A stretch of DNA of 64,000 nt from Candidatus Latescibacterota bacterium (GTDB taxonomy: Bacteria > Latescibacterota > UBA2968 > UBA8231), in contig OZ241362.1 of the NCBI GenBank assembly GCA_965200315.1, positions 4,544,001-4,608,000 of the forward strand, in the 5' to 3' direction. The notes beneath the pieces were generated by a model. That model had not been told where the DNA came from. It saw only the letters and a program-made list of their open reading frames with translations, and ran no database searches. Shown here piece after piece: positions 31,932 to 47,441 of this stretch; position 1 is the first letter of the stretch, and the number at the start of each line of letters is the position of its first letter. The position numbers were made by a program, and so were the translations under genes.

Positions 31932-33458
31932 ATGGCTAAACAAGATCAAGATCAATCGAGATACAAGCTCGCGGGGTACTCAGCACTGATCGAGCAGTAC
32001 GAACTCGACGTCATCCCAAATTGGCATACATCCTTGATAGCCAGCAGCGGAATCCACCGGATCGATTCTCGCGCAGGCATCATCAAAGAAGTTTATCCAT
32101 CCAAGTACTGGCCTGGGGAGACACTGGGCGACCAGCTCGAATTTGCTCTCAAGTATGACGGAACGAACCTCGCCATTCTCGCCAGCTTGTTCCAGAAAGC
32201 ATCAGAGGACGATTTCCTCGCCTATGTCCGCTCGAAACCGACCGGCAAGTACGTCAGGCGCTTGTGGTTTTTCTATGAGTTCCTGACTGGGAAGAGACTC
32301 CCGTTGGATGACCTGAAGCGAGGGAACTACATCGATCTACTCGAACCAGATGCCTATTATACGATCGAACCGGGCCACCAAATCCGCCGTCAACGGGTCA
32401 ATGACAACCTGCTTGGTGAAAGTCGATTCTGTCCAACAGTTCGTCGCACCGATATTCTGCGAAACTTTGAAACGGACGAGCTGCATACGAGATGCCGACA
32501 AGTGGTGTCTCGTTATGCGCCAGAATTGTTACAGCGCGCGCTCAACTACCTGTACACCAAGGAAACAAAATCGTCTTTTGAAATCGAACACATCACCCCC
32601 ACCTCGACCCGAACCGAACGCTTCGTAGCTCTGCTCCACCTAGCCGAGCGGAAAGACTTTTGTCGCAAACCGCGGTTAATTGACTTACAGAACCGCATCG
32701 TTGACGCCCGGTTCTGCGATGCCGACTATCGAATGACCCAAAATTACGTCGGGCAGAGCGTGGCTTGGCAGCAAGAGCACATCCACTTTGTGGCCCCCAA
32801 GCCCGATGATTTAGCTGGCCTGATGGAAGGCCTAGTAGCCACTCACAAACGCATGGAAGTCGGTGCTGTTCCGCCTGTTATTCAAGCTGCTGCCATCACC
32901 TATGGATTCGTTTTTCTGCACCCCTTTGAGGACGGTAATGGTCGAATCCATCGCTTCTTAATCCACAATATTCTCGCTCGCCGTGGCTTTACACCCGAAA
33001 GCGTTATGTTTCCCATATCGGCAGTCATGCTAAAAAATCCAGCCGACTATGACGCCTCCCTAAATGCTTTCTCCCAACAGCTAATGCCCTTGGTGGAATA
33101 CACACTCGACCAAGATGGACGCTTGACTGTGCATAACGATACTGCTACATGGTACCGCTATATCGACATGACCCCCCAAGCAGAGACACTTTTTCGCTTC
33201 ATTGATCAGACCATAGATACCGAACTCGCCCGCGAACTGGCCTTCCTAGCCAACTACGATACGACCAAACAAGCCATCCAAGCCATCGTAGATATGCCCG
33301 ACCGACAGATTGACCTCTTCATTCGTTTTTGCCGCCAAAACAACGGCCAACTGTCCGCCCGAAAACGCGCAAGCCACTTTAACGATCTGGCAGATGAAGA
33401 AGTCGATTCTATGGAAGGTGTCGTGCAAGCCACTTATGGGAACGCCACCGTCCCGTAG
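31932..33458 (+). CDS. Fic family protein (long form)
   Basis: HPFEDGNGRIHR Fic motif; ETKSSFEIE inhibitory-helix-like motif; lower GC. Confidence 0.92.
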   Translation: MAKQDQDQSRYKLAGYSALIEQYELDVIPNWHTSLIASSGIHRIDSRAGIIKEVYPSKYWPGETLGDQLEFALKYDGTNLAILASLFQKASEDDFLAYVRSKPTGKYVRRLWFFYEFLTGKRLPLDDLKRGNYIDLLEPDAYYTIEPGHQIRRQRVNDNLLGESRFCPTVRRTDILRNFETDELHTRCRQVVSRYAPELLQRALNYLYTKETKSSFEIEHITPTSTRTERFVALLHLAERKDFCRKPRLIDLQNRIVDARFCDADYRMTQNYVGQSVAWQQEHIHFVAPKPDDLAGLMEGLVATHKRMEVGAVPPVIQAAAITYGFVFLHPFEDGNGRIHRFLIHNILARRGFTPESVMFPISAVMLKNPADYDASLNAFSQQLMPLVEYTLDQDGRLTVHNDTATWYRYIDMTPQAETLFRFIDQTIDTELARELAFLANYDTTKQAIQAIVDMPDRQIDLFIRFCRQNNGQLSARKRASHFNDLADEEVDSMEGVVQATYGNATVP

Positions 33459-39104: not shown

Positions 39105-39965
39105 ATGACCTTAGTCGGCAGCGGAGCATTCACCTATGCAGTGCAGCAGGATTGGTTTGAATTGCCGGAAGGCTGGCGCTTTGGCTGGGTTCCAGCGGTC
39201 GCTTGCGATTCCGAAGATCGGGTCTATGTGTACAGCCGCAGCGAGCGTCCCATGGTCGTCTTCGACCGCGAGGGGTGCTTTGTCGCCTCGTGGGGCGAAG
39301 AGGTGCTAAAGGACGCCCACGGCATCTTTATCGACGACCGCGACCAAATCTGGTGCATCGAGCGCGAAACCCACTGCGTGCGCCAGTTCACCCGCGACGG
39401 CGAGCTGCTTTTGACCTTGGGAACGCCAGACCAAGAAGGCGCGGAGGGCCAGCCCTTCCGGCTGCCTACCGACTTAGCGCTCGACGCCGACGGCTATATC
39501 TACGTATCCGACGGCTACGGCAACGCCTGCATCCACAGGTATGCACCCGACGGCGAATTCATCAAGACGTGGGGCCGCCCGGGCAGCGGCCCGGGGGAAT
39601 TCGACCTGCCCCACTGCGTGCGCGTGGACCAACGCGGGCGGCTGCTGGTGGCCGACCGCGCCAACAACCGCATCCAGTTTTTCGACCTCGACGGCAACTA
39701 CCTAGAGGAATGGGGCGGCTTTCACCATCCCGATACCATTTTCCTCGACGGGGATACGGTCTATGTCGCGGAGCTCGACCAGCGGGTGAGCATTCTCAAC
39801 CTCGACGGCGAATGGCTCGCTCAATGGGGCTCGGGCGAGCGCATCGACGCACCGGGAGAATTCCTCGGCTGCCCCCACGGCATTTGGATGGATTCCCGCG
39901 GCGACCTCTACGTGGGGGAAGTGCAAACCGACCATCGCATTCAGAAGTTCGTGCGGCAACACTAA
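39105..39965 (+). CDS. NHL-repeat beta-propeller (PAL-like amidating lyase family)
   Basis: AHGIF, PTDLA, VSDGYGN, GPGEFDLPH, VADRANNRIQ, CPHGIW. Confidence 0.88.
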   Translation: MTLVGSGAFTYAVQQDWFELPEGWRFGWVPAVACDSEDRVYVYSRSERPMVVFDREGCFVASWGEEVLKDAHGIFIDDRDQIWCIERETHCVRQFTRDGELLLTLGTPDQEGAEGQPFRLPTDLALDADGYIYVSDGYGNACIHRYAPDGEFIKTWGRPGSGPGEFDLPHCVRVDQRGRLLVADRANNRIQFFDLDGNYLEEWGGFHHPDTIFLDGDTVYVAELDQRVSILNLDGEWLAQWGSGERIDAPGEFLGCPHGIWMDSRGDLYVGEVQTDHRIQKFVRQH

Positions 39966-39976
39966 GGAGGTTGGTG

Positions 39977-41116
39977 ATGAACAAATTTTTGTTGCATCTA
40001 ACGGCTTTAGCGGTGTTGGGAGCCTCTGCCCTAAACGCCCAATCCCCGCAAGTAGGCGATCCGGCCCCCGGTTTCGTCTTGGACCGGCTCGATGGCGGCC
40101 AAGCAGCCTTGAGCGACTTCGCGGGACAAGTGGTGCTGATTTTTTTCGCCGGCTATGGCTGAAGTGCCTGTCTCTCGCGTGCCGAGAGCTTTGAAGAAAT
40201 CTGGCAGGAATTTGCCGACGAGCGCTTTGCCGCCTTGGTTGTCGATGCTTGGGACGGCACTGCGGCACAAGTGCGGGCCCGCTGGCGCTTAGCCAAGGGG
40301 GTTACGATGCCCCTCTTGCTGAACGCCTCCCAGATGACAATCGAGTACGGGCAAACCTACCAGACCTTTGCCATCATCGACCACGAGGGCATCTTCCGCT
40401 TCAAGACTAATTTCCTGATACCCATGAACGACCTCCGCGACGAGGTGATGCTGGCTCTGGCCGATTTGCCTCCCATCGAGGAGGAAGCGGACGAAGTGGA
40501 GGAAGCAGAGGAAACGGTCGAAACGGAGGAAGTGGTCGAAGCGGTCGAAGCGGTCGAAGCGGACGAAGCGGACGAAGCGGACGAAGCGGACGAAGTGGAG
40601 GAAGCAGAGGAAGCGGACGAAGCGGAGGAAGCGGTCGAGGCTGAGGAAACGGAGGAAGCGGTCGAAGTGGTCGAAGTGGTCGAAGCGGTCGAAGCGGAGG
40701 AAACGGCCAACAGCTTCGACGACATGTTTGAACACCTCGATAGGCAAGCGGAGCAAGCGGAGCAAGCGGAGGAAACGGAGGAAACGGACGAAGTGGTGGA
40801 GACGGTGGTGGAGGCGTTTGATCAGGCGTCTGTCCCCCAAGCCTTTTCGCTAGCCCAGAACGCGCCCAATCCGTTCAACGGCGAGACTGTGATCCGCTTT
40901 GCGCTGCCGCAACCGAGCCAAGCCGAGCTGGCGATCTACAACCTGCTCGGCCAGCCAGTGGCTGTGCTCGTACAGGGGCCTAGCGCGGCCGGGACATTCT
41001 CGGTGCGCTGGGACGGCCGCGACCAAATGGGACGAGCGGTGACCAGCGGAGTGTATCTCTACCAGTTGCGAGCCGGCGAGTACACAGAAGTCCGCAAGCT
41101 GCTGCTGCTCCAGTAG
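39977..41116 (+). CDS. Secreted selenocysteine-containing redoxin (AhpC/TSA-TlpA fold, UxxC) with acidic stalk and FlgD-Ig/T9SS-like C-terminal domain
   Basis: aaggagg RBS; signal peptide; VGDPAPGFVL..LSDFAGQVVLIFFAGYG-TGA(40160)-SAC; frame continues to QNAPNPFN..WDGRD..SGVYLY..KLLLLQ; SECIS-like hairpin. Confidence 0.85.
40163..40190 (+). promoter_or_regulatory. Putative bacterial SECIS element
   Basis: ctctcg-cgtgc-cgagag stem-loop at 40172-40188, starting 9 nt after the UGA, with GU in the loop. Confidence 0.6.
40478..40817 (+). repeat. Intragenic 9-bp degenerate tandem repeats encoding a Glu-rich stalk
   Basis: gaagcggac/gaagcggtc/gaagtggtc/gaaacggag units giving EAD/EAV/EVV/ETE. Confidence 0.85.
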
Positions 41117-41162: not shown

Positions 41163-42686
41163 TCAGAAGAAGCGGTTGAGCAGCCGGACTTCGACGCCGG
41201 TAAACCCTAGCACCTCATAGCAGATGCCAGCCGTGCAAGCTAGCCCCGAGCGGCGCTGGCCGGCGAAGACGTTGAGGATGTGGCCCTCGCCAATGTCGGC
41301 CCCAATGTTGAGGCCCCGCCACCACGTGATGCCAGAGGGATCGGCTCCGGTTTCCAACTCGTCGGAGGTGCGCTGGACCTGCACGGCGGCGGAGAGGCTG
41401 GGGGCGCGGTGGACCGCTAGGGCATAGTATTGGTTGGTGTAAGGAAGTGCTAGGTCGCCAAATCGCCGATCGACGTCTTGAAATTGCGCGTCGAACTCGA
41501 AGGTGTAGGACCCGTCTGGCAACCACTCCCAGTGCGTGCCCAAGAGGCGGCTTTTGTCGTCGAGGAGAATCTGGTTGTGGCTAAAGTCGGCAAAAAGCTG
41601 CACATCGGCACTTTGGCCCACGGGCGAATCCATCTGCACAAAGAATTCGCGCAGGACGTTGTCGTCGGCGGTGCCCGAATCGCGGCGGCGCGTGGCGCGG
41701 GTCGCATTGGCAATGAGGATTTGGCCGCTGGGTAGGACATAACTCAGTTCGGCTTGGTAGCCCTGCTCGTCGTCGGCGAGCACATCGTGCGTGATGCGAT
41801 TGAGGAGATAGGCCGAGTGTTCTCGGATTAAGGGCGGAGGGTCGTTGATGTGTTCGAGGGCAAAGTCCTCGTAGTCTTTGTATTCCAAGCTCAAGCCCCA
41901 CGGCCCGGATGCCCAAGTGGCCGCTAGGTACAGGGCGCGGCCCAAACTGCGGTCGAGCGAGAAGAAGCGGTCGAATGCCACATCGCGCTGAGCGTACTCG
42001 CCTTGGAGATCGGCATACACTCCGTTGAGGCCGAGGCGGGCCAGCAAAGGCGCGAGCCGCCAGCGTGCATTAAAGGCCGCGCTTGTTTCTTGCCGCCTGC
42101 CGGCTGGGTAGCGGATGGCGCTAACGCCAACGTCGAAATGCGGATGCGGCTTGAGCTGGAGCGATCCAGCGTGGAGCACGTCTGGACGTCGCTCAATCCC
42201 CTCCAAGCCGGGCGGCAGATTGCTGTTGATCGGCGCACCGCGCAACAGCAGCACTTCGGCCCGCTTGGCTCGGTAGCGCACCTGAACGCCGTCGAGATCG
42301 CGTACGATCTGGTAGCGACGGCGAGCACCCCGCTCCTCAGTGATGACGCCGGGCAGCTCAAAGGCGTGGAGGAGCAAGCCGCTGCCGATGATGGTGTAGA
42401 AATTGCCAACAGTAGCTTCAAAACCACTCCGGCGGTAGGAGGCAGAGCGCTGGAGGAGTTGGCCGTAGTTGCGATTGGTTGCACTAGAGCCAAAAGTCTC
42501 GCCGCGGACCCCGACTTGGAGGTCAGCGAGTGCATAGTCGAGGCTGAACTGGTGGTAGATCGTCCGCAGGTCGCTGGGCTTTGTGCCGGGCAGATTGCCG
42601 ACTTGGCCTTCGGTCAGAGCCGAAAGACGCAGCTCGGCTTGGAGAGGGGCGTCCAGCAGCAGTGTAAGTGCAAAAACGAAGCGCAT
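41163..42686 (-). CDS. DUF6029-like outer-membrane beta-barrel protein
   Basis: Signal peptide; TVGNFYTIIGSGLLL, LEYKDY..INDPPPLIREH, C-terminal GQRRSGLACTAGICYEVLGFTGVEVRLLNRFF ending in Phe. Confidence 0.7.
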   Translation of the reverse strand: MRFVFALTLLLDAPLQAELRLSALTEGQVGNLPGTKPSDLRTIYHQFSLDYALADLQVGVRGETFGSSATNRNYGQLLQRSASYRRSGFEATVGNFYTIIGSGLLLHAFELPGVITEERGARRRYQIVRDLDGVQVRYRAKRAEVLLLRGAPINSNLPPGLEGIERRPDVLHAGSLQLKPHPHFDVGVSAIRYPAGRRQETSAAFNARWRLAPLLARLGLNGVYADLQGEYAQRDVAFDRFFSLDRSLGRALYLAATWASGPWGLSLEYKDYEDFALEHINDPPPLIREHSAYLLNRITHDVLADDEQGYQAELSYVLPSGQILIANATRATRRRDSGTADDNVLREFFVQMDSPVGQSADVQLFADFSHNQILLDDKSRLLGTHWEWLPDGSYTFEFDAQFQDVDRRFGDLALPYTNQYYALAVHRAPSLSAAVQVQRTSDELETGADPSGITWWRGLNIGADIGEGHILNVFAGQRRSGLACTAGICYEVLGFTGVEVRLLNRFF

Positions 42687-42766
42687 GGCTTGGGTCCTAG
42701 CTATAATGTGGTTAGTGGTGGTCCTAGCTATCGGCTACTCAAATTTTAGCAGAACGGAGCTTAAAC

Positions 42767-43261
42767 ATGAAACCAATTTTCGCATGGGCAACCTGCTTGC
42801 TGCTCGTCGCCGCGGCTCGCGCCGAAAAAGCACCGCAACTCGTGTTGGAAAACCTCGATGGATCGACCTTTTTGCTGGTGGAGGCGCTCAAAAAAGGGCC
42901 GGTGGTCTTCGACTTCTGGGCGACTTGGTGCAAGCCCTGTATCAAGAGTCTGCCCAAGGTCCAAGCCCTATCCGAAAAATACGCCGAGCGCGGCGTCCAA
43001 GTGCTGACGATCAACGTCGATGGCCCGAGAAACCTGCCCAAAGTGCGGCCCTTTATGCAGCGCCACAAGCTCAAACTGCCGGTTTTGCTCGACAAGACCA
43101 ACGAGGTGCTCAAGCAATTTCACCTATCCGGCGTCCCGGCGACCCTGATTATTGCGGCTGACGGGACGGTGTGGTACAAGCATCAGGGGTATCGGCCCGG
43201 CGACGAGCAGAAGCTCAAGGCCAAACTAGACGAATTGCTCGGCCCCCCAGAGGACGAATAA
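42767..43261 (+). CDS. TlpA-family exported thiol-disulfide oxidoreductase
   Basis: Signal peptide; DFWATWCKPC; GVPAT; HQGYRPGDE. Confidence 0.9.
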   Translation: MKPIFAWATCLLLVAAARAEKAPQLVLENLDGSTFLLVEALKKGPVVFDFWATWCKPCIKSLPKVQALSEKYAERGVQVLTINVDGPRNLPKVRPFMQRHKLKLPVLLDKTNEVLKQFHLSGVPATLIIAADGTVWYKHQGYRPGDEQKLKAKLDELLGPPEDE

Positions 43262-43858: not shown

Positions 43859-44932
43859 CTAAAAAACTGGAATGAACTTGTGGCACACGGGCGAGGGGAC
43901 TTCGGCCTTGTGGCCGGTAGGCGTGAGCTTGCCGGTGTCTGGATCGACTCGGAAGGTGAAGATGTCGTTGGTGCTGTGGTTGCCGACGATTAGGTAGGTG
44001 CCCGTGGGGTCGAGGCCGAAGTTGCGCGGGTTGACACCACCGGTTGGCACGATCTCGACGAGTGCGAGCTGGCCGCTGTCTTGGTCGATGGCATAGACGG
44101 CAATGGAGTCGTGGCCGCGGTTGGACCCGTAGAGGAAGCGGCCGTTGGGGTGGACGTGGATGTCGGCGGTGTGGCTGACTTCCGCATAGCCGGCGGGCAG
44201 CGTCGAGATGGTCTGGATGGTGGTGAGTGTGCCGGCGTCAGCGTCGTAGTCGAAAGCCGTGATGGTGTTGCTCAACTCGTTGATGACGTAAGCCCTTTGG
44301 CTGTCGGGGTGGAAGGCGAGGTGGCGCGGGCCGCTACCGGGGGCGATTTCCGCAGGCTTCTGGGCGCTGAGCTTGCCATTTACGTGGTCAATCGCATAGA
44401 TGAGCACCTTGTCGATACCCAAGTCTGGGGCAAAGGCGTGTTTGTTGTTGGGGGCAACCATAATCGAGTGGGCATGCGGCCCCTCTTGGCGGCCCGGATT
44501 GACCGAGGACCCCTCGTGTTGGACAAAATCCGTGGCCGGGCCGAGCGAGCCATCTTCCCGAATCGGCAGGATTGCGACGCTGCCGCCGCCGTAATTGGCG
44601 ACCAGCGCGTACTGGCCAGCGCGGTCAATGCTGATGTGGCAGGGGCCGGGGCCAACGGTCGATTCGGTGTTGATGTGGGTGAGGGCACCGCTCTGCTGGT
44701 CAATGGCAAAGGCCGCAACCGCGCCGCCGGGCCGGCCGCCGACATCGCTAGTCTCGCCGATGGCGTAGAGGAAGCGGCGGTTGGGCTCGATGTCGAGGAA
44801 GGAAGGGTTGTCAATGCCGCCAATGCTGCTTTGATGCGCGAGCGCACCGGTGGCCATGTCGAGGCGATAGACGTGGATGCCGTCCTCGTCGCCGCTGGAA
44901 TAGGTGCCGACATAGACGAGATAATCGCTCAT
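43859..44932 (-). CDS. pgl: 6-phosphogluconolactonase (7-bladed lactonase family)
   Basis: YVGTY, NPSFL, GPCH, ANYGGG, PHAH, GSGPRH, SNRGHDSI, PRNF. ATG 44932 follows an aaggag RBS. Confidence 0.85.
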   Translation of the reverse strand: MSDYLVYVGTYSSGDEDGIHVYRLDMATGALAHQSSIGGIDNPSFLDIEPNRRFLYAIGETSDVGGRPGGAVAAFAIDQQSGALTHINTESTVGPGPCHISIDRAGQYALVANYGGGSVAILPIREDGSLGPATDFVQHEGSSVNPGRQEGPHAHSIMVAPNNKHAFAPDLGIDKVLIYAIDHVNGKLSAQKPAEIAPGSGPRHLAFHPDSQRAYVINELSNTITAFDYDADAGTLTTIQTISTLPAGYAEVSHTADIHVHPNGRFLYGSNRGHDSIAVYAIDQDSGQLALVEIVPTGGVNPRNFGLDPTGTYLIVGNHSTNDIFTFRVDPDTGKLTPTGHKAEVPSPVCHKFIPVF

Positions 44933-45095
44933 GGAGGAACTCCTTTGGGTTGTGAAGGCGATGGAAGGGAGAAAGAGAAGCACAGATAACAAGGCATTCG
45001 TTACAAACCGCATCGTTTCACCAAAACACTGTTGAACTTTCGCAAGCGACAGACCTAATCCCATAAATCCTGCCAATCCCGTTAATTTCTGATCT

Positions 45096-47441
45096 CTAAT
45101 AGACAACCGAAATCGCACCTGTGTGCGTCCCCGGCCCCGACTCGGCTCCCAGATCGAGGCGGTAGAGATACATGCCCGGCGCGACCACGGCTCCCGCCTC
45201 GTCGCGAGCCGTCCAAGTGAAGCGATGACCTGTTGAGGTCGGAGTGGATTCGACCACAGCGACTTGGCGGCCCGCTAGGTCGTAGAGCGCGAGCATAGGA
45301 GTTGCTGCGTCTAACTTAAAGACCACAAAGTGCATGTCGAGCGCGTCGTTGACCCCGTCGCCGTTGGGCGTGATCACGGGCGAGGCCAGTTCCAATGAGT
45401 CGATGAGTTGGCCGTGCTCGGCTAGCTCGGGTAGCATTACTACCTGAGAGCGGCGCTCGGCTGGCTCGACCGACTGCCAAAGACCGGGCCGCTCGCTCAA
45501 CCCGAGGTCGAGGGGAAAAACCGTGGCATTGTGCAAGACTCGCGTCGTGAAACCCACCCGAACCGAGTCCCCGGTCACGATGTGTGGCAAGGCGACCAAC
45601 AGCGAGTCGCCCCGCTGATCGACGCGGGCAGGTTCGACCGGCGCGGAGCCGATGTGTAGCTCGAGGTCCTCGGCGTCAATCCGGCCCGGCACTGTAAAGC
45701 GCAACAGGTCGAAACCCGAGTCCTCAGCCTCCATCTGCGGCCACAGTGTATAGGTGAAACGGGTGTCCTCGTTGGGGATGGCTTGGCGCGGCTCAATGCG
45801 GCCCACCGCACCCTGTAACAGCGCGTCCTCAAACTCGACCGAGAGCGAATGGACCACCGGTGCCACGTTGGGGGCATCGGTGGAGAGGATCATCTCCAGC
45901 AGGATGAAGCGGCGCGGGCTTTCCGATTGAAATGCCTCGCCCGGGAACGGATAGACATTGCTCCACTCACCCCAATCCTCGCCCACCACGAGCGTCGTAT
46001 CGACCGGGCCGCGCAGTACCTTGGGCGAACTCTTCCATTTCTCCTCGGTGACCTGTTCGCCGATCTTGTTGTAAAACGTATAGACCGGCTCTAGCGAGTT
46101 GCCCGAGCGCGAGCGCAGTTGCAGGCGGGTGCCCGCGGCCAACTCGGCATCCCAAGAGAGGCTTTTGATGACTTTTGGACGCCCGTCGCCCGAGGTTTGT
46201 CCTAAGTCGATGAAGTCCGAGTGCAATACTACTTCAGCGGGATAGCCCGGAGAGAAAAGCATGAACTCGGCCCATTTGACGATGCCCCAGCCGGTGTCCT
46301 TGATGCCGTGCCAGAAGAAGTAGCGCATCTTGCGCGGCTTGAACATATAGCGAATGTAGAGCAGGCGGTCGGCATTGGGATTGATGTGGGTCAGGAGCTC
46401 TGTGTAGTCAAACGCATCGGGCACGGGCAGATTGGAACTGAGGCTGTGGGTGCCATCTGAATAGAGTACGGTATGACCCGGGCCGGTGCCACTGATCGAG
46501 AAGCCCACCAAGCCCTCGTCGGGCCTAAAGGAATAGAGAAAGAATTCATCGACGAAGAACACCGCCCCCAAATCCACTCCGAACCACACCCCACCCTCCT
46601 TCCAGCCGAGGCTGCCATACGAAGAGCCGATGAGGTTGTTGGTGTTCATGTCGGCGTCGAAGAGGTTTTGCGGATCGACCGAATTGATCCCATTGACAAA
46701 ACGGCCCCGCTGCATGGTGCCGATGCTGATGTTGTCGCCGATGCCGCGGACCTCAATTTCGGCCAAGGCCGCGTCCGGCGTCTTCTCTTCGGCCTCAATG
46801 CGAATGCGCTGGATCACCCGATAGTTGTTTTTGGCCATCGGGTCGATACCCAAGCCCTCGTCGAGCTGAAATACACTGTCGCGAGCAGTGAATCCGAGGG
46901 GGATGACGATTTCGCTGGCCGCGTTGGGCCGGGTCGTGCGGAAAAGCGGATCCAGCAGCACCAAGTCGTCTTGGACCGAGATGCGGGTCCCCGTGCTGCC
47001 GTACACGGTAAACTGGTGGAAGGGACGCGCGCCCTCCTCGTCGGGAAAAACGAGGCGTATCTCCCGGGCCAACACGGCGCGGCCCAAGTCTATCTCAATG
47101 GCCCAGTCCTCGACGGCATCCGCTGGATCTGGACGCCAGAAGGTCTGGAGATTCCCGTCGATGATGAGGTCCGCATCGGCAGGGTTGGAGGTCGCCTCCC
47201 AGAGGCCGCCCGTAGTTCGCCCGCGGCTTTTGCTCTCATAGGAGAAGCGATGGGCATCGGCGACTGCGTTGATGTCCTTGCGGAACTTGACGAGCTGTAG
47301 CTGGCCGTTCTCGCCCACTTCAGTCAGGCCGAGAGGCACCTGCCAAGTCGCCCAAGCATCTTGCCCTTGGAAGGTCAGGGTTTCGCTGCTAACGGCCATG
47401 GCCACAACCGCGACGCAGACGAGCGGCAAAAGAAATCGCAT
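45096..47441 (-). CDS. Large secreted protein with C-terminal FlgD Ig-like domain
   Basis: Signal peptide; IEIDLGR; VITPNGDGVND..WTARDEAG..PGMYLY. Confidence 0.8.
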   Translation of the reverse strand: MRFLLPLVCVAVVAMAVSSETLTFQGQDAWATWQVPLGLTEVGENGQLQLVKFRKDINAVADAHRFSYESKSRGRTTGGLWEATSNPADADLIIDGNLQTFWRPDPADAVEDWAIEIDLGRAVLAREIRLVFPDEEGARPFHQFTVYGSTGTRISVQDDLVLLDPLFRTTRPNAASEIVIPLGFTARDSVFQLDEGLGIDPMAKNNYRVIQRIRIEAEEKTPDAALAEIEVRGIGDNISIGTMQRGRFVNGINSVDPQNLFDADMNTNNLIGSSYGSLGWKEGGVWFGVDLGAVFFVDEFFLYSFRPDEGLVGFSISGTGPGHTVLYSDGTHSLSSNLPVPDAFDYTELLTHINPNADRLLYIRYMFKPRKMRYFFWHGIKDTGWGIVKWAEFMLFSPGYPAEVVLHSDFIDLGQTSGDGRPKVIKSLSWDAELAAGTRLQLRSRSGNSLEPVYTFYNKIGEQVTEEKWKSSPKVLRGPVDTTLVVGEDWGEWSNVYPFPGEAFQSESPRRFILLEMILSTDAPNVAPVVHSLSVEFEDALLQGAVGRIEPRQAIPNEDTRFTYTLWPQMEAEDSGFDLLRFTVPGRIDAEDLELHIGSAPVEPARVDQRGDSLLVALPHIVTGDSVRVGFTTRVLHNATVFPLDLGLSERPGLWQSVEPAERRSQVVMLPELAEHGQLIDSLELASPVITPNGDGVNDALDMHFVVFKLDAATPMLALYDLAGRQVAVVESTPTSTGHRFTWTARDEAGAVVAPGMYLYRLDLGAESGPGTHTGAISVVY

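Follow-up and report, generated by a model that had tools for sequence, protein, structure and literature searches.

A probable secretion-tagged redoxin selenoprotein hidden behind an in-frame UGA codon in a Candidatus Latescibacterota genome

We focused our attention on a locus of a Candidatus Latescibacterota bacterium (assembly GCA_965200315.1) that lies at positions 39977 to 41116 of a 64,000-nucleotide stretch of contig OZ241362.1 (positions 4,544,001 to 4,608,000 of the forward strand, hereafter the window) and that is interrupted by an in-frame TGA codon. With a probability of roughly 85%, the locus represents one intact gene for an exported selenoprotein and not two genes. The predicted protein combines a signal peptide, a redoxin domain whose active-site residue 62 is almost certainly selenocysteine (Sec, U), an acidic linker of variable length and a C-terminal domain of the type A sorting class associated with type IX secretion systems (T9SS).

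The initial annotation of this DNA had proposed that the open reading frame (ORF) track splits the gene, and the ATG, the ribosome-binding site, the TGA and the frame continuing to a total of 379 residues were all found where it had placed them. ORF calling with translation table 11 yields two pieces (39203..40162 and 40235..41116), and public databases hold only the downstream one, under the name 'T9SS type A sorting domain-containing protein', together with a 61-residue N-terminal stub, so that the prediction that automated annotation would miss the gene was correct. The TGA indeed falls on the first Cys position of a CxxC-type motif, here G-Y-G-U-S-A-C, and orthologs in related genomes cover the gene over its full length with one TGA each. 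Promoter and terminator scans around the gene returned nothing exceeding shuffled sequences.

The genome encodes the complete machinery for Sec insertion, which had been put forward as a check on the claim: SelA (478.2 bits), SelB (345.3 bits; cut-off 242.25), SelD (371.1 bits) and a tRNA-Sec (selC; 71.9 bits, anticodon TCA) all score above their cut-offs, and the SelD gene carries an in-frame TGA of its own, at A-C-G-G-U. Moreover, the TGA is conserved. It occupied the U column in 20 of the 20 loci first examined from relatives, and when 33 loci were scanned, paralogs included, the motif occurred 33 times in 32 of them, always with TGA. A scan of the phylum (168 genomes, E <= 1e-15) gave matches in 72 genomes, and 94 of the 97 listed matches had an in-frame TGA while three did not, the Sec column being verified in a sample only, which was drawn from other genera and families and contained 10 Sec forms and 2 Cys forms. 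Named genome records, labelled Candidatus Latescibacterota and in some cases Gemmatimonadetes, provided 56 loci that largely overlap the 168-genome scan and are not independent of it: 49 had TGA, six had TGT or TGC, and in one the motif was not found. The six Cys forms all lie outside the phylum, in Bacteroidota, Desulfobacterales, Gammaproteobacteria and Roseospira.

Beyond these close relatives, an exhaustive HMMER search, for which the redoxin domain served as query, returned 5590 matches at E <= 0.001. Among the 176 aligned stretches of the best 150 proteins, the Sec column held C in 168, A in three, Y in two, and P, S and D in one each; Trp, which the initial annotation had named as the residue that would speak against its proposal, never occurred, and Cys clearly predominated. 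The ratio of nonsynonymous to synonymous substitution rates (dN/dS) was 0.19 upstream of the TGA and 0.41 downstream of it, and the Pfam AhpC-TSA domain spans the codon. In addition, contigs from four public runs belonging to two studies were identical to the window over 39900-40584, and therefore the TGA is not an assembly error; TGC or TGT at this codon had been suggested as another way for the proposal to fail, and the contigs of all four runs read TGA. Three of these runs are RNA libraries whose contigs cover the gene, but such contigs cannot show transcription, strand or level, and the libraries hold contigs of up to 68 kb. This counts against our interpretation, and no claim on expression is made.

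We then considered the RNA structure downstream of the UGA. A 6-bp-stem hairpin had been described as starting 9 nt after this codon, and it is present there, at nucleotides 13-29 counted from the U of UGA; in our view it is the probable selenocysteine insertion sequence (SECIS). Its support is evolutionary, through synonymous constraint and compensatory pairs, and not thermodynamic. A single codon is used at 5 of the 6 invariant hairpin residues, compared with 7 of 26 residues elsewhere (19 orthologs; Fisher p = 0.0185, a value that overstates the significance, the 19 genomes being kin), and the synonymous rate dS, which is 0.484 upstream, falls to 0.146 over the 19 codons that follow the UGA. 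Across 25 distinct sequences, 86.3% of the cells of a common helix are paired, as opposed to 26-51% with slid partners; pair 22:32 is U-A in 14 sequences and G-C in 11, and at pair 19:35, 14 sequences have C-G and one has A-U. A second clade has UCGCGG/AGG/CCGCGA at the equivalent place, and in more distant Sec forms the hairpin varies further, its loop having GG or GU at about nucleotides 20-24; some of these forms have GGUC loops, which we take to be of the E. coli fdhF type.

Several observations weigh against the assignment of this hairpin as the SECIS. The bacterial SECIS (bSECIS) consensus, as given in the accessible part of its source, consists of a loop of 3-9 nt with G in its initial two positions, a stem of 4-16 bp, 16-37 nt from UGA to loop and a minimum free energy of <= -7.5 kcal/mol (PMC13188914). 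The stem of our candidate fits, and so does its loop, with a G at position 2 and a U after it, but spacing and energy are just short of these values, with 15 nt from UGA to the apical loop, one below the consensus range, and -6.4 to -6.9 kcal/mol for the bare hairpin. The 71-nt region folds no better than shuffled sequences (z = +0.93, with an equal or better fold in 163 of 200 shuffles), covariation between clades amounts to few independent events, Cys-form homologs also have chance hairpins 3' of the codon, and Rfam at its gathering thresholds reports no family in the 64-kb window. Furthermore, a second hairpin, at codons +14 to +18, is a rival candidate for the SelB site: close orthologs keep it almost unchanged, and it resembles, in its distance from the UGA and in its start, an fdhF-like hairpin of SelD (CUGGCA/GGUC/UGCCAG) that sits 42 nt past SelD's UGA, outside the published 16-37 nt. 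As the second hairpin is absent from other clades, the first one is favoured.

Could the TGA be a true stop, and the locus a pseudogene or two separate small genes? This would agree with table-11 ORF calling and with the public annotation, and TGA is the commonest stop codon of the genome; nevertheless, the stop would interrupt one Pfam domain precisely where the active-site Cys is aligned, at a position kept across four families of the phylum, and purifying selection acts on both sides of it in a genome with complete Sec machinery. We find such an explanation scarcely credible. Hardly better placed is the idea that the UGA is read through by other means, be it a suppressor tRNA, insertion of Trp, Gly or Cys, or general recoding. 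It draws on the fact that we infer Sec insertion at residue 62, and on the partial agreement of the hairpin with the bSECIS consensus. On the other hand, TGA ends 823 of the 1753 long open frames of the genome and terminates this very gene in several orthologs, and thus it is not generally recoded; neither Trp nor Gly stands at the column in homologs, where Cys is the rule; tRNA-Sec, SelA, SelB and SelD are all encoded; and the in-frame UGA of the genome's SelD lies at the usual Sec/Cys position of that protein. Altogether, this makes non-Sec read-through very improbable, and selenocysteine at residue 62 is the reading with which we proceed.

Regarding the protein itself, the initial annotation had pointed to an exported redoxin; the redoxin domain holds, and a signal peptide is predicted by inspection of the translation, where it looks typical. 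Similar signal-like N-termini are present in 16 of 16 aligned Sec forms, and residues 2-21 are helical in the AlphaFold model. The following domain matches Pfam AhpC-TSA (PF00578; residues 26-141, 47.7 bits, cut-off 26) and Redoxin (PF08534; 37.2 bits). The model reaches a mean predicted local distance difference test (pLDDT) value of 81, with both folded domains above 90 for the most part, and it places U62 in the usual CxxC position, directly before helix 63-79. The best matches are 2ls5 (E = 1.8e-27 by profile, 7e-11 by Foldseek) and ResA (target-normalised template modelling score, TM-score, of 0.83-0.88). The protein stays below the cut-off of every curated NCBIfam model for redoxin or selenoprotein families: the selenoprotein models give 20.1 against 100 bits (TUGYCR redoxin), 16.2 against 120 (SelL-related) and 23.6 against 250 (deiodinase-related), and the ResA model NF002854 gives 32.2 against 170. 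Since the fold is similar and the score lies below the NF002854 cut-off, the protein may work like ResA without belonging to that family. The typical peroxiredoxin (Prx) motif P-x-x-x-T-x-x-C(U) is absent; in G-Y-G-U-S-A-C, the U stands at the position of the Prx Thr.

The C-terminal domain is an FlgD-Ig/T9SS-type domain, as had been claimed. It passes the NCBIfam model TIGR04183 (39.4 bits, cut-off 23) over residues 297-376 of 379, and Pfam FlgD_ig, at residues 300-365, is likewise above its own cut-off with 39.2 bits. The domain is modelled with a pLDDT of 96-97, and the family profile matches the solved T9SS sorting domains 8glj and 8glk. In the same genome, tblastn finds 84 matches to this domain class, 48 of which reach the domain end, 35 of these within three residues of a stop codon. 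As for the secretion machinery, SprA (622 bits) and PorU (615 bits) are both above their cut-offs. We therefore propose, from sequence similarity, that the protein would be secreted by this route and would end up at the cell surface or outside the cell.

Between the two domains lies the acidic linker, with 47% Asp plus Glu over 120 residues and a pLDDT of about 38-55 over most of its length. The initial annotation had seen in it a stalk on which the enzyme is projected; the acidic stretch does exist, but it is not a conserved design, being a 9-bp repeat expansion (arrays at 40480-40706, with 25.2 copies, and at 40744-40788), and the linkers of orthologs range from 21 to about 133 residues. In a deeper paralog, a D-A-Q-A-A-A repeat serves as linker. 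The contigs of all four public runs break at the 9-bp repeats, at window positions 40555-40593 and 40742-40773, and short-read assemblies will therefore often truncate or collapse the gene.

Two further alternatives concern function and destination. The enzyme could be mainly a peroxidase, with Prx- or glutathione peroxidase-like selenol chemistry, and not a thiol-disulfide oxidoreductase: selenols react rapidly with peroxides, AhpC/TSA is the best Pfam family, and the AhpE and Bcp peroxiredoxins are among the structural matches. UxxC proteins of this sort have also been termed 'Prx-like' (PMC1088965). However, UxxC in place of the Prx TxxC/TxxU puts the Sec in the thioredoxin-type nucleophile position, the top structural and profile matches are the putative disulfide isomerase 2ls5 and ResA, and Cys homologs have CPxC and CGPC, typical of disulfide oxidoreductases. 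The neighbouring genes include no evident electron donor for a redoxin at the surface, which weighs against our interpretation. We consider a mainly peroxidatic role distinctly less probable, yet the most serious of the alternatives; thiol-disulfide exchange outside the cytoplasm, as reductase or isomerase, is most likely the activity, and peroxide reduction is possibly another. With regard to destination, the selenoprotein could be real while its C-terminal domain is not a type IX signal in this phylum, and instead is an Ig-like adhesion or spacer module of a protein that is periplasmic or takes another surface route. In favour of this, GldM was not found in the genome (94.7% complete), GldK gave only weak, partial, sub-threshold matches, and the PorV-like gene adjoining porU reaches 150 bits against a cut-off of 250; because GldM was not found and GldK is weak, the T9SS machinery is only partly shown. 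Pfam Por_Secre_tail (PF18962) also remains below its cut-off (21 against 27 bits) while FlgD_ig is above, dockerin-like tails replace the sorting domain in related Sec forms, and no publication linking Latescibacteria to type IX secretion was found, within limited literature coverage. All of these are points against a T9SS route. They are opposed by the curated TIGR04183 model being passed, by SprA and PorU above their cut-offs, the latter next to a PorV-like gene, by the fit of the family profile to solved sorting domains, and by the occurrence of the domain class at protein C-termini throughout the genome. A destination other than that of a T9SS cargo is thus unlikely in our judgement, and export by the type IX route is the reading we retain.

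Taking these results together, the following mechanism can be proposed. SelB and Sec-tRNA(Sec) would decode the UGA at codon 62, recruited by an mRNA hairpin directly 3' of it, most likely the one at 40172-40188. The signal peptide would then take the protein across the inner membrane, and its U-S-A-C centre would lie at the N-terminal end of helix alpha-1 in a thioredoxin fold like that of ResA/TlpA, where the selenol would act as the attacking nucleophile and C65 as its resolving partner, with formation of a selenenylsulfide. The type A sorting domain would mark the protein for SprA, the translocon of type IX secretion, and would be removed by the PorU sortase, leading to surface attachment or release of the protein. 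The acidic repeats would act as a flexible spacer, one that may expand and contract between species.

We next considered how widespread this type of protein is. The initial annotation had called the architecture unusual, which did not prove to be the case: the Cys form makes up a large family, and the Sec form is spread through Latescibacterota. Among the best 150 homologs, 89 are 240-300 residues long; these 89 and the query all carry AhpC-TSA and Redoxin (90 of 90), and Por_Secre_tail is found in 88 of the 90, showing that Cys-form T9SS-tailed redoxins are common. A FastTree phylogeny of 63 rows (25 Sec and 38 Cys; of the 89 Cys representatives only the first 30 were included, and loci lacking a motif match were dropped) requires five Sec/Cys changes, three of them forced by well-supported branches; the tree is quick and poorly resolved, 28 of its 59 inner branches being open.

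The Sec head also occurs on other carriers. One 639-residue protein combines it with a beta-lactamase-like domain and a T9SS tail (L090:125-2041, minus strand). Two others end in a dockerin/EF-hand-like tail preceded by HYDIN/ASH immunoglobulin (Ig)-like repeats, two in a protein of 444 residues (L078:977-2308, plus strand) and 14 in one of 1686 residues (L082:360-5417, minus strand). Together with the acidic linker plus T9SS tail of the present protein, these make four predicted chassis. Tentatively, and with somewhat less than even confidence, we propose to see in the Sec-redoxin head a modular selenium catalyst of the extracellular space, placed in Latescibacterota on at least four surface-display chassis. 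The resulting selenoenzymes would be active beyond the outer membrane, where Sec, and not Cys, would be needed to survive in an oxidising milieu without enzymatic reductant. A possible role would be to deal with oxidants, or with proteins rich in disulfides, on the surface of host-associated bacteria.

Within the family, a second Sec paralog clade with the motif G-F-I-U-S-H-C (about 298 residues, short linker, T9SS tail) was observed in many genomes of the same genus (L064-L073, e.g., L064:823-1332, minus strand); with the query used, the window's own genome gave no match to this clade. At another locus (L077, G078:C1:5119600-5122900), two tandem matches lie about 0.4 kb apart, one with TGA and one without; the Cys motif was seen, and the Sec match did not fit the motif pattern. 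The Cys form at this locus has a hairpin, GAACG/GGCC/CGUUC, after its TGT, which may reflect a recent switch from Sec to Cys.

The coordinates of the gene, its parts and its neighbours are collected in Table 1. The upstream NHL-repeat gene is 91-97% identical in 16 ortholog loci and is probably co-transcribed with the selenoprotein gene. The synteny of the NHL and DUF6029 genes is kept in orthologs, and by tblastn the link to DUF6029 persists even in the two most divergent members of the genus (L042 and L043; G016 and G019). The DUF6029 protein ends in Phe, a C-terminal residue common in outer-membrane barrels, and its gene stands between two secreted redoxins (window 41163-43261), with the Sec one convergent and the Cys one (W-C-K-P-C) divergent. 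Two hypotheses on the neighbourhood were rejected: an exported NHL-redoxin pair, as the NHL protein has no signal peptide, and a link to surface repair by methionine sulfoxide reductase (Msr) like that of the pneumococcal Etrx proteins, as the nearby MsrA has a cytoplasmic-type N-terminus.

Table 1. Positions, in window coordinates, of the proposed selenoprotein gene, its predicted elements and its neighbouring genes.
Feature	Position	Strand	Details and basis
Ribosome-binding site AAGGAGG	39964..39970	+	6 nt 5' of ATG 39977; overlaps the TAA (39963-39965) of the upstream NHL-repeat gene; read from sequence
Whole gene of the proposed selenoprotein	39977..41116	+	379 codons, then TAG 41114-41116; single in-frame TGA; translation with TGA = U
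Predicted Sec-type signal peptide, residues 1-21	39977..40039	+	K3, hydrophobic core, L-N-A then Q; inspection of translation
Thioredoxin-fold AhpC-TSA/Redoxin domain, residues 25-141	40049..40399	+	Pfam, AlphaFold, Foldseek
UGA almost certainly read as selenocysteine (U62)	40160..40162	+	codon 62 in G-Y-G-U-S-A-C; conserved TGA, Cys in homologs
U-S-A-C redox motif	40160..40171	+	C65 invariant (alignments); U62 just before helix 63-79 (DSSP on model)
Probable SECIS hairpin CUCUCG/CGUGC/CGAGAG	40172..40188	+	6-bp stem, 5-nt loop, G at loop position 2
Second hairpin UGGCAG/GAAU/UUGCCG	40202..40217	+	folding; conserved codons (+14 to +18)
Acidic low-complexity linker, residues 166-285	40472..40831	+	tandem repeats, ortholog lengths, low-confidence model
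T9SS type A C-terminal sorting domain (predicted), residues 297-379	40865..41113	+	Ig-like beta-sandwich; TIGR04183, FlgD_ig
NHL-repeat beta-propeller gene, cytoplasmic	39105..39965	+	Pfam, translation; no signal peptide; stop inside the ribosome-binding site
DUF6029 gene, convergent	41163..42686	-	Pfam, translation; signal-like N-terminus, C-terminal Phe
Secreted Cys-form TlpA/ResA-like redoxin, W-C-K-P-C	42767..43261	+	translation, Pfam, NCBIfam

Elsewhere in the window, a gene at 45096-47441 (minus strand) encodes a probable T9SS cargo, 781 residues long, that has a tail of the CHU_C/FlgD_ig type and matches F5/8 type C weakly; it is adjoined by a gene for a 7-bladed lactonase (43859-45118), and a gene at 31932-33458 (plus strand) encodes a 508-residue protein with a Fic/DOC domain. 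Outside the window, the same genome holds a second hidden selenoprotein, an AhpC/Prx-like protein of the lipoprotein type (L-V-G-C) with the motif F-F-U-G-S-C (G000:C1:1453491-1453946, minus strand), whose UGA is followed by a hairpin CCAACU/AGGUG/AGUUGG with its loop starting at nucleotide 24. SelD, also a selenoprotein (A-C-G-G-U-A-S-K), is encoded at G000:C1:2481770-2482693 (plus strand, locus L013), likewise outside the window.

As regards the significance of these findings, selenocysteine is costly to encode, and its retention in a secretion-tagged redoxin family suggests a chemistry that cysteine cannot sustain outside the cell; selenocysteine also withstands irreversible over-oxidation better than cysteine does. 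Since all public records of this gene that were seen are wrong, under-counting affects both the selenoproteomes and the secretomes of Latescibacterota and of related uncultured phyla. Moreover, the family offers natural Sec/Cys pairs (at least three to five switches, according to the quick tree) and a varied set of short SECIS hairpins, which would be useful for studies of SelB recognition beyond model organisms.

Finally, we compared the protein with known systems. Its redox head is of a known kind, since UxxC selenoproteins of PF00578/PF08534 have already been catalogued, under the names 'Prx-like thiol:disulfide oxidoreductase', 'Redoxin family protein' and 'Thiol-disulfide isomerase-like' (PMC13188914, PMC1088965, each in its accessible part). 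With the 'Prx-like' members it shares the thioredoxin fold, the Pfam families, a predicted Sec as the first residue of UxxC, Cys homologs and a putative SECIS after the UGA; it also agrees with the definition of that family, having PF00578 above cut-off and U-S-A-C in place of the Prx motif TxxC/TxxU (PMC13188914, PMC1088965). It differs in its sorting domain, secretion tail and predicted extracellular location, which are not mentioned in the accessible parts of those sources, the comparison being one of descriptions and not of sequences; in the accessible part of the 2026 review PMC13188914, the words 'secreted' and 'periplasm' have 0 occurrences. The Cys-form T9SS redoxins, which come from public genomes and metagenomes and have about 260 residues and 23-41% identity to the present protein, show the same order of signal peptide, AhpC-TSA/Redoxin domain and Por_Secre_tail, and their G-x-x-C-x-x-C aligns with G-Y-G-U-S-A-C; they differ in having Cys for Sec, a short linker and no SECIS constraint. 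The Bacteroidales locus L141 is identical to one of the Cys-form T9SS redoxins in the tree. The ResA/TlpA oxidoreductases and 2ls5, the latter from Bacteroides thetaiotaomicron, give the best profile and fold matches; ResA/TlpA proteins, however, carry W-C-x-x-C with Cys, are membrane-anchored or periplasmic, and have no T9SS tail. Among proteins studied by experiment, the closest analogue by function and route is HBP35 of Porphyromonas gingivalis, described as a T9SS cargo that has thioredoxin activity and is translocated to the surface under the direction of its C-terminal domain (PMC4674972); the likeness is one of description only, and HBP35 differs in being a Cys protein of a Bacteroidota pathogen. 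Within limited literature coverage, no publication was found that joins selenoproteins with type IX secretion or with Latescibacteria. What is new here is therefore the combination of a secretion tag and a variable linker with a selenoprotein of a known kind.

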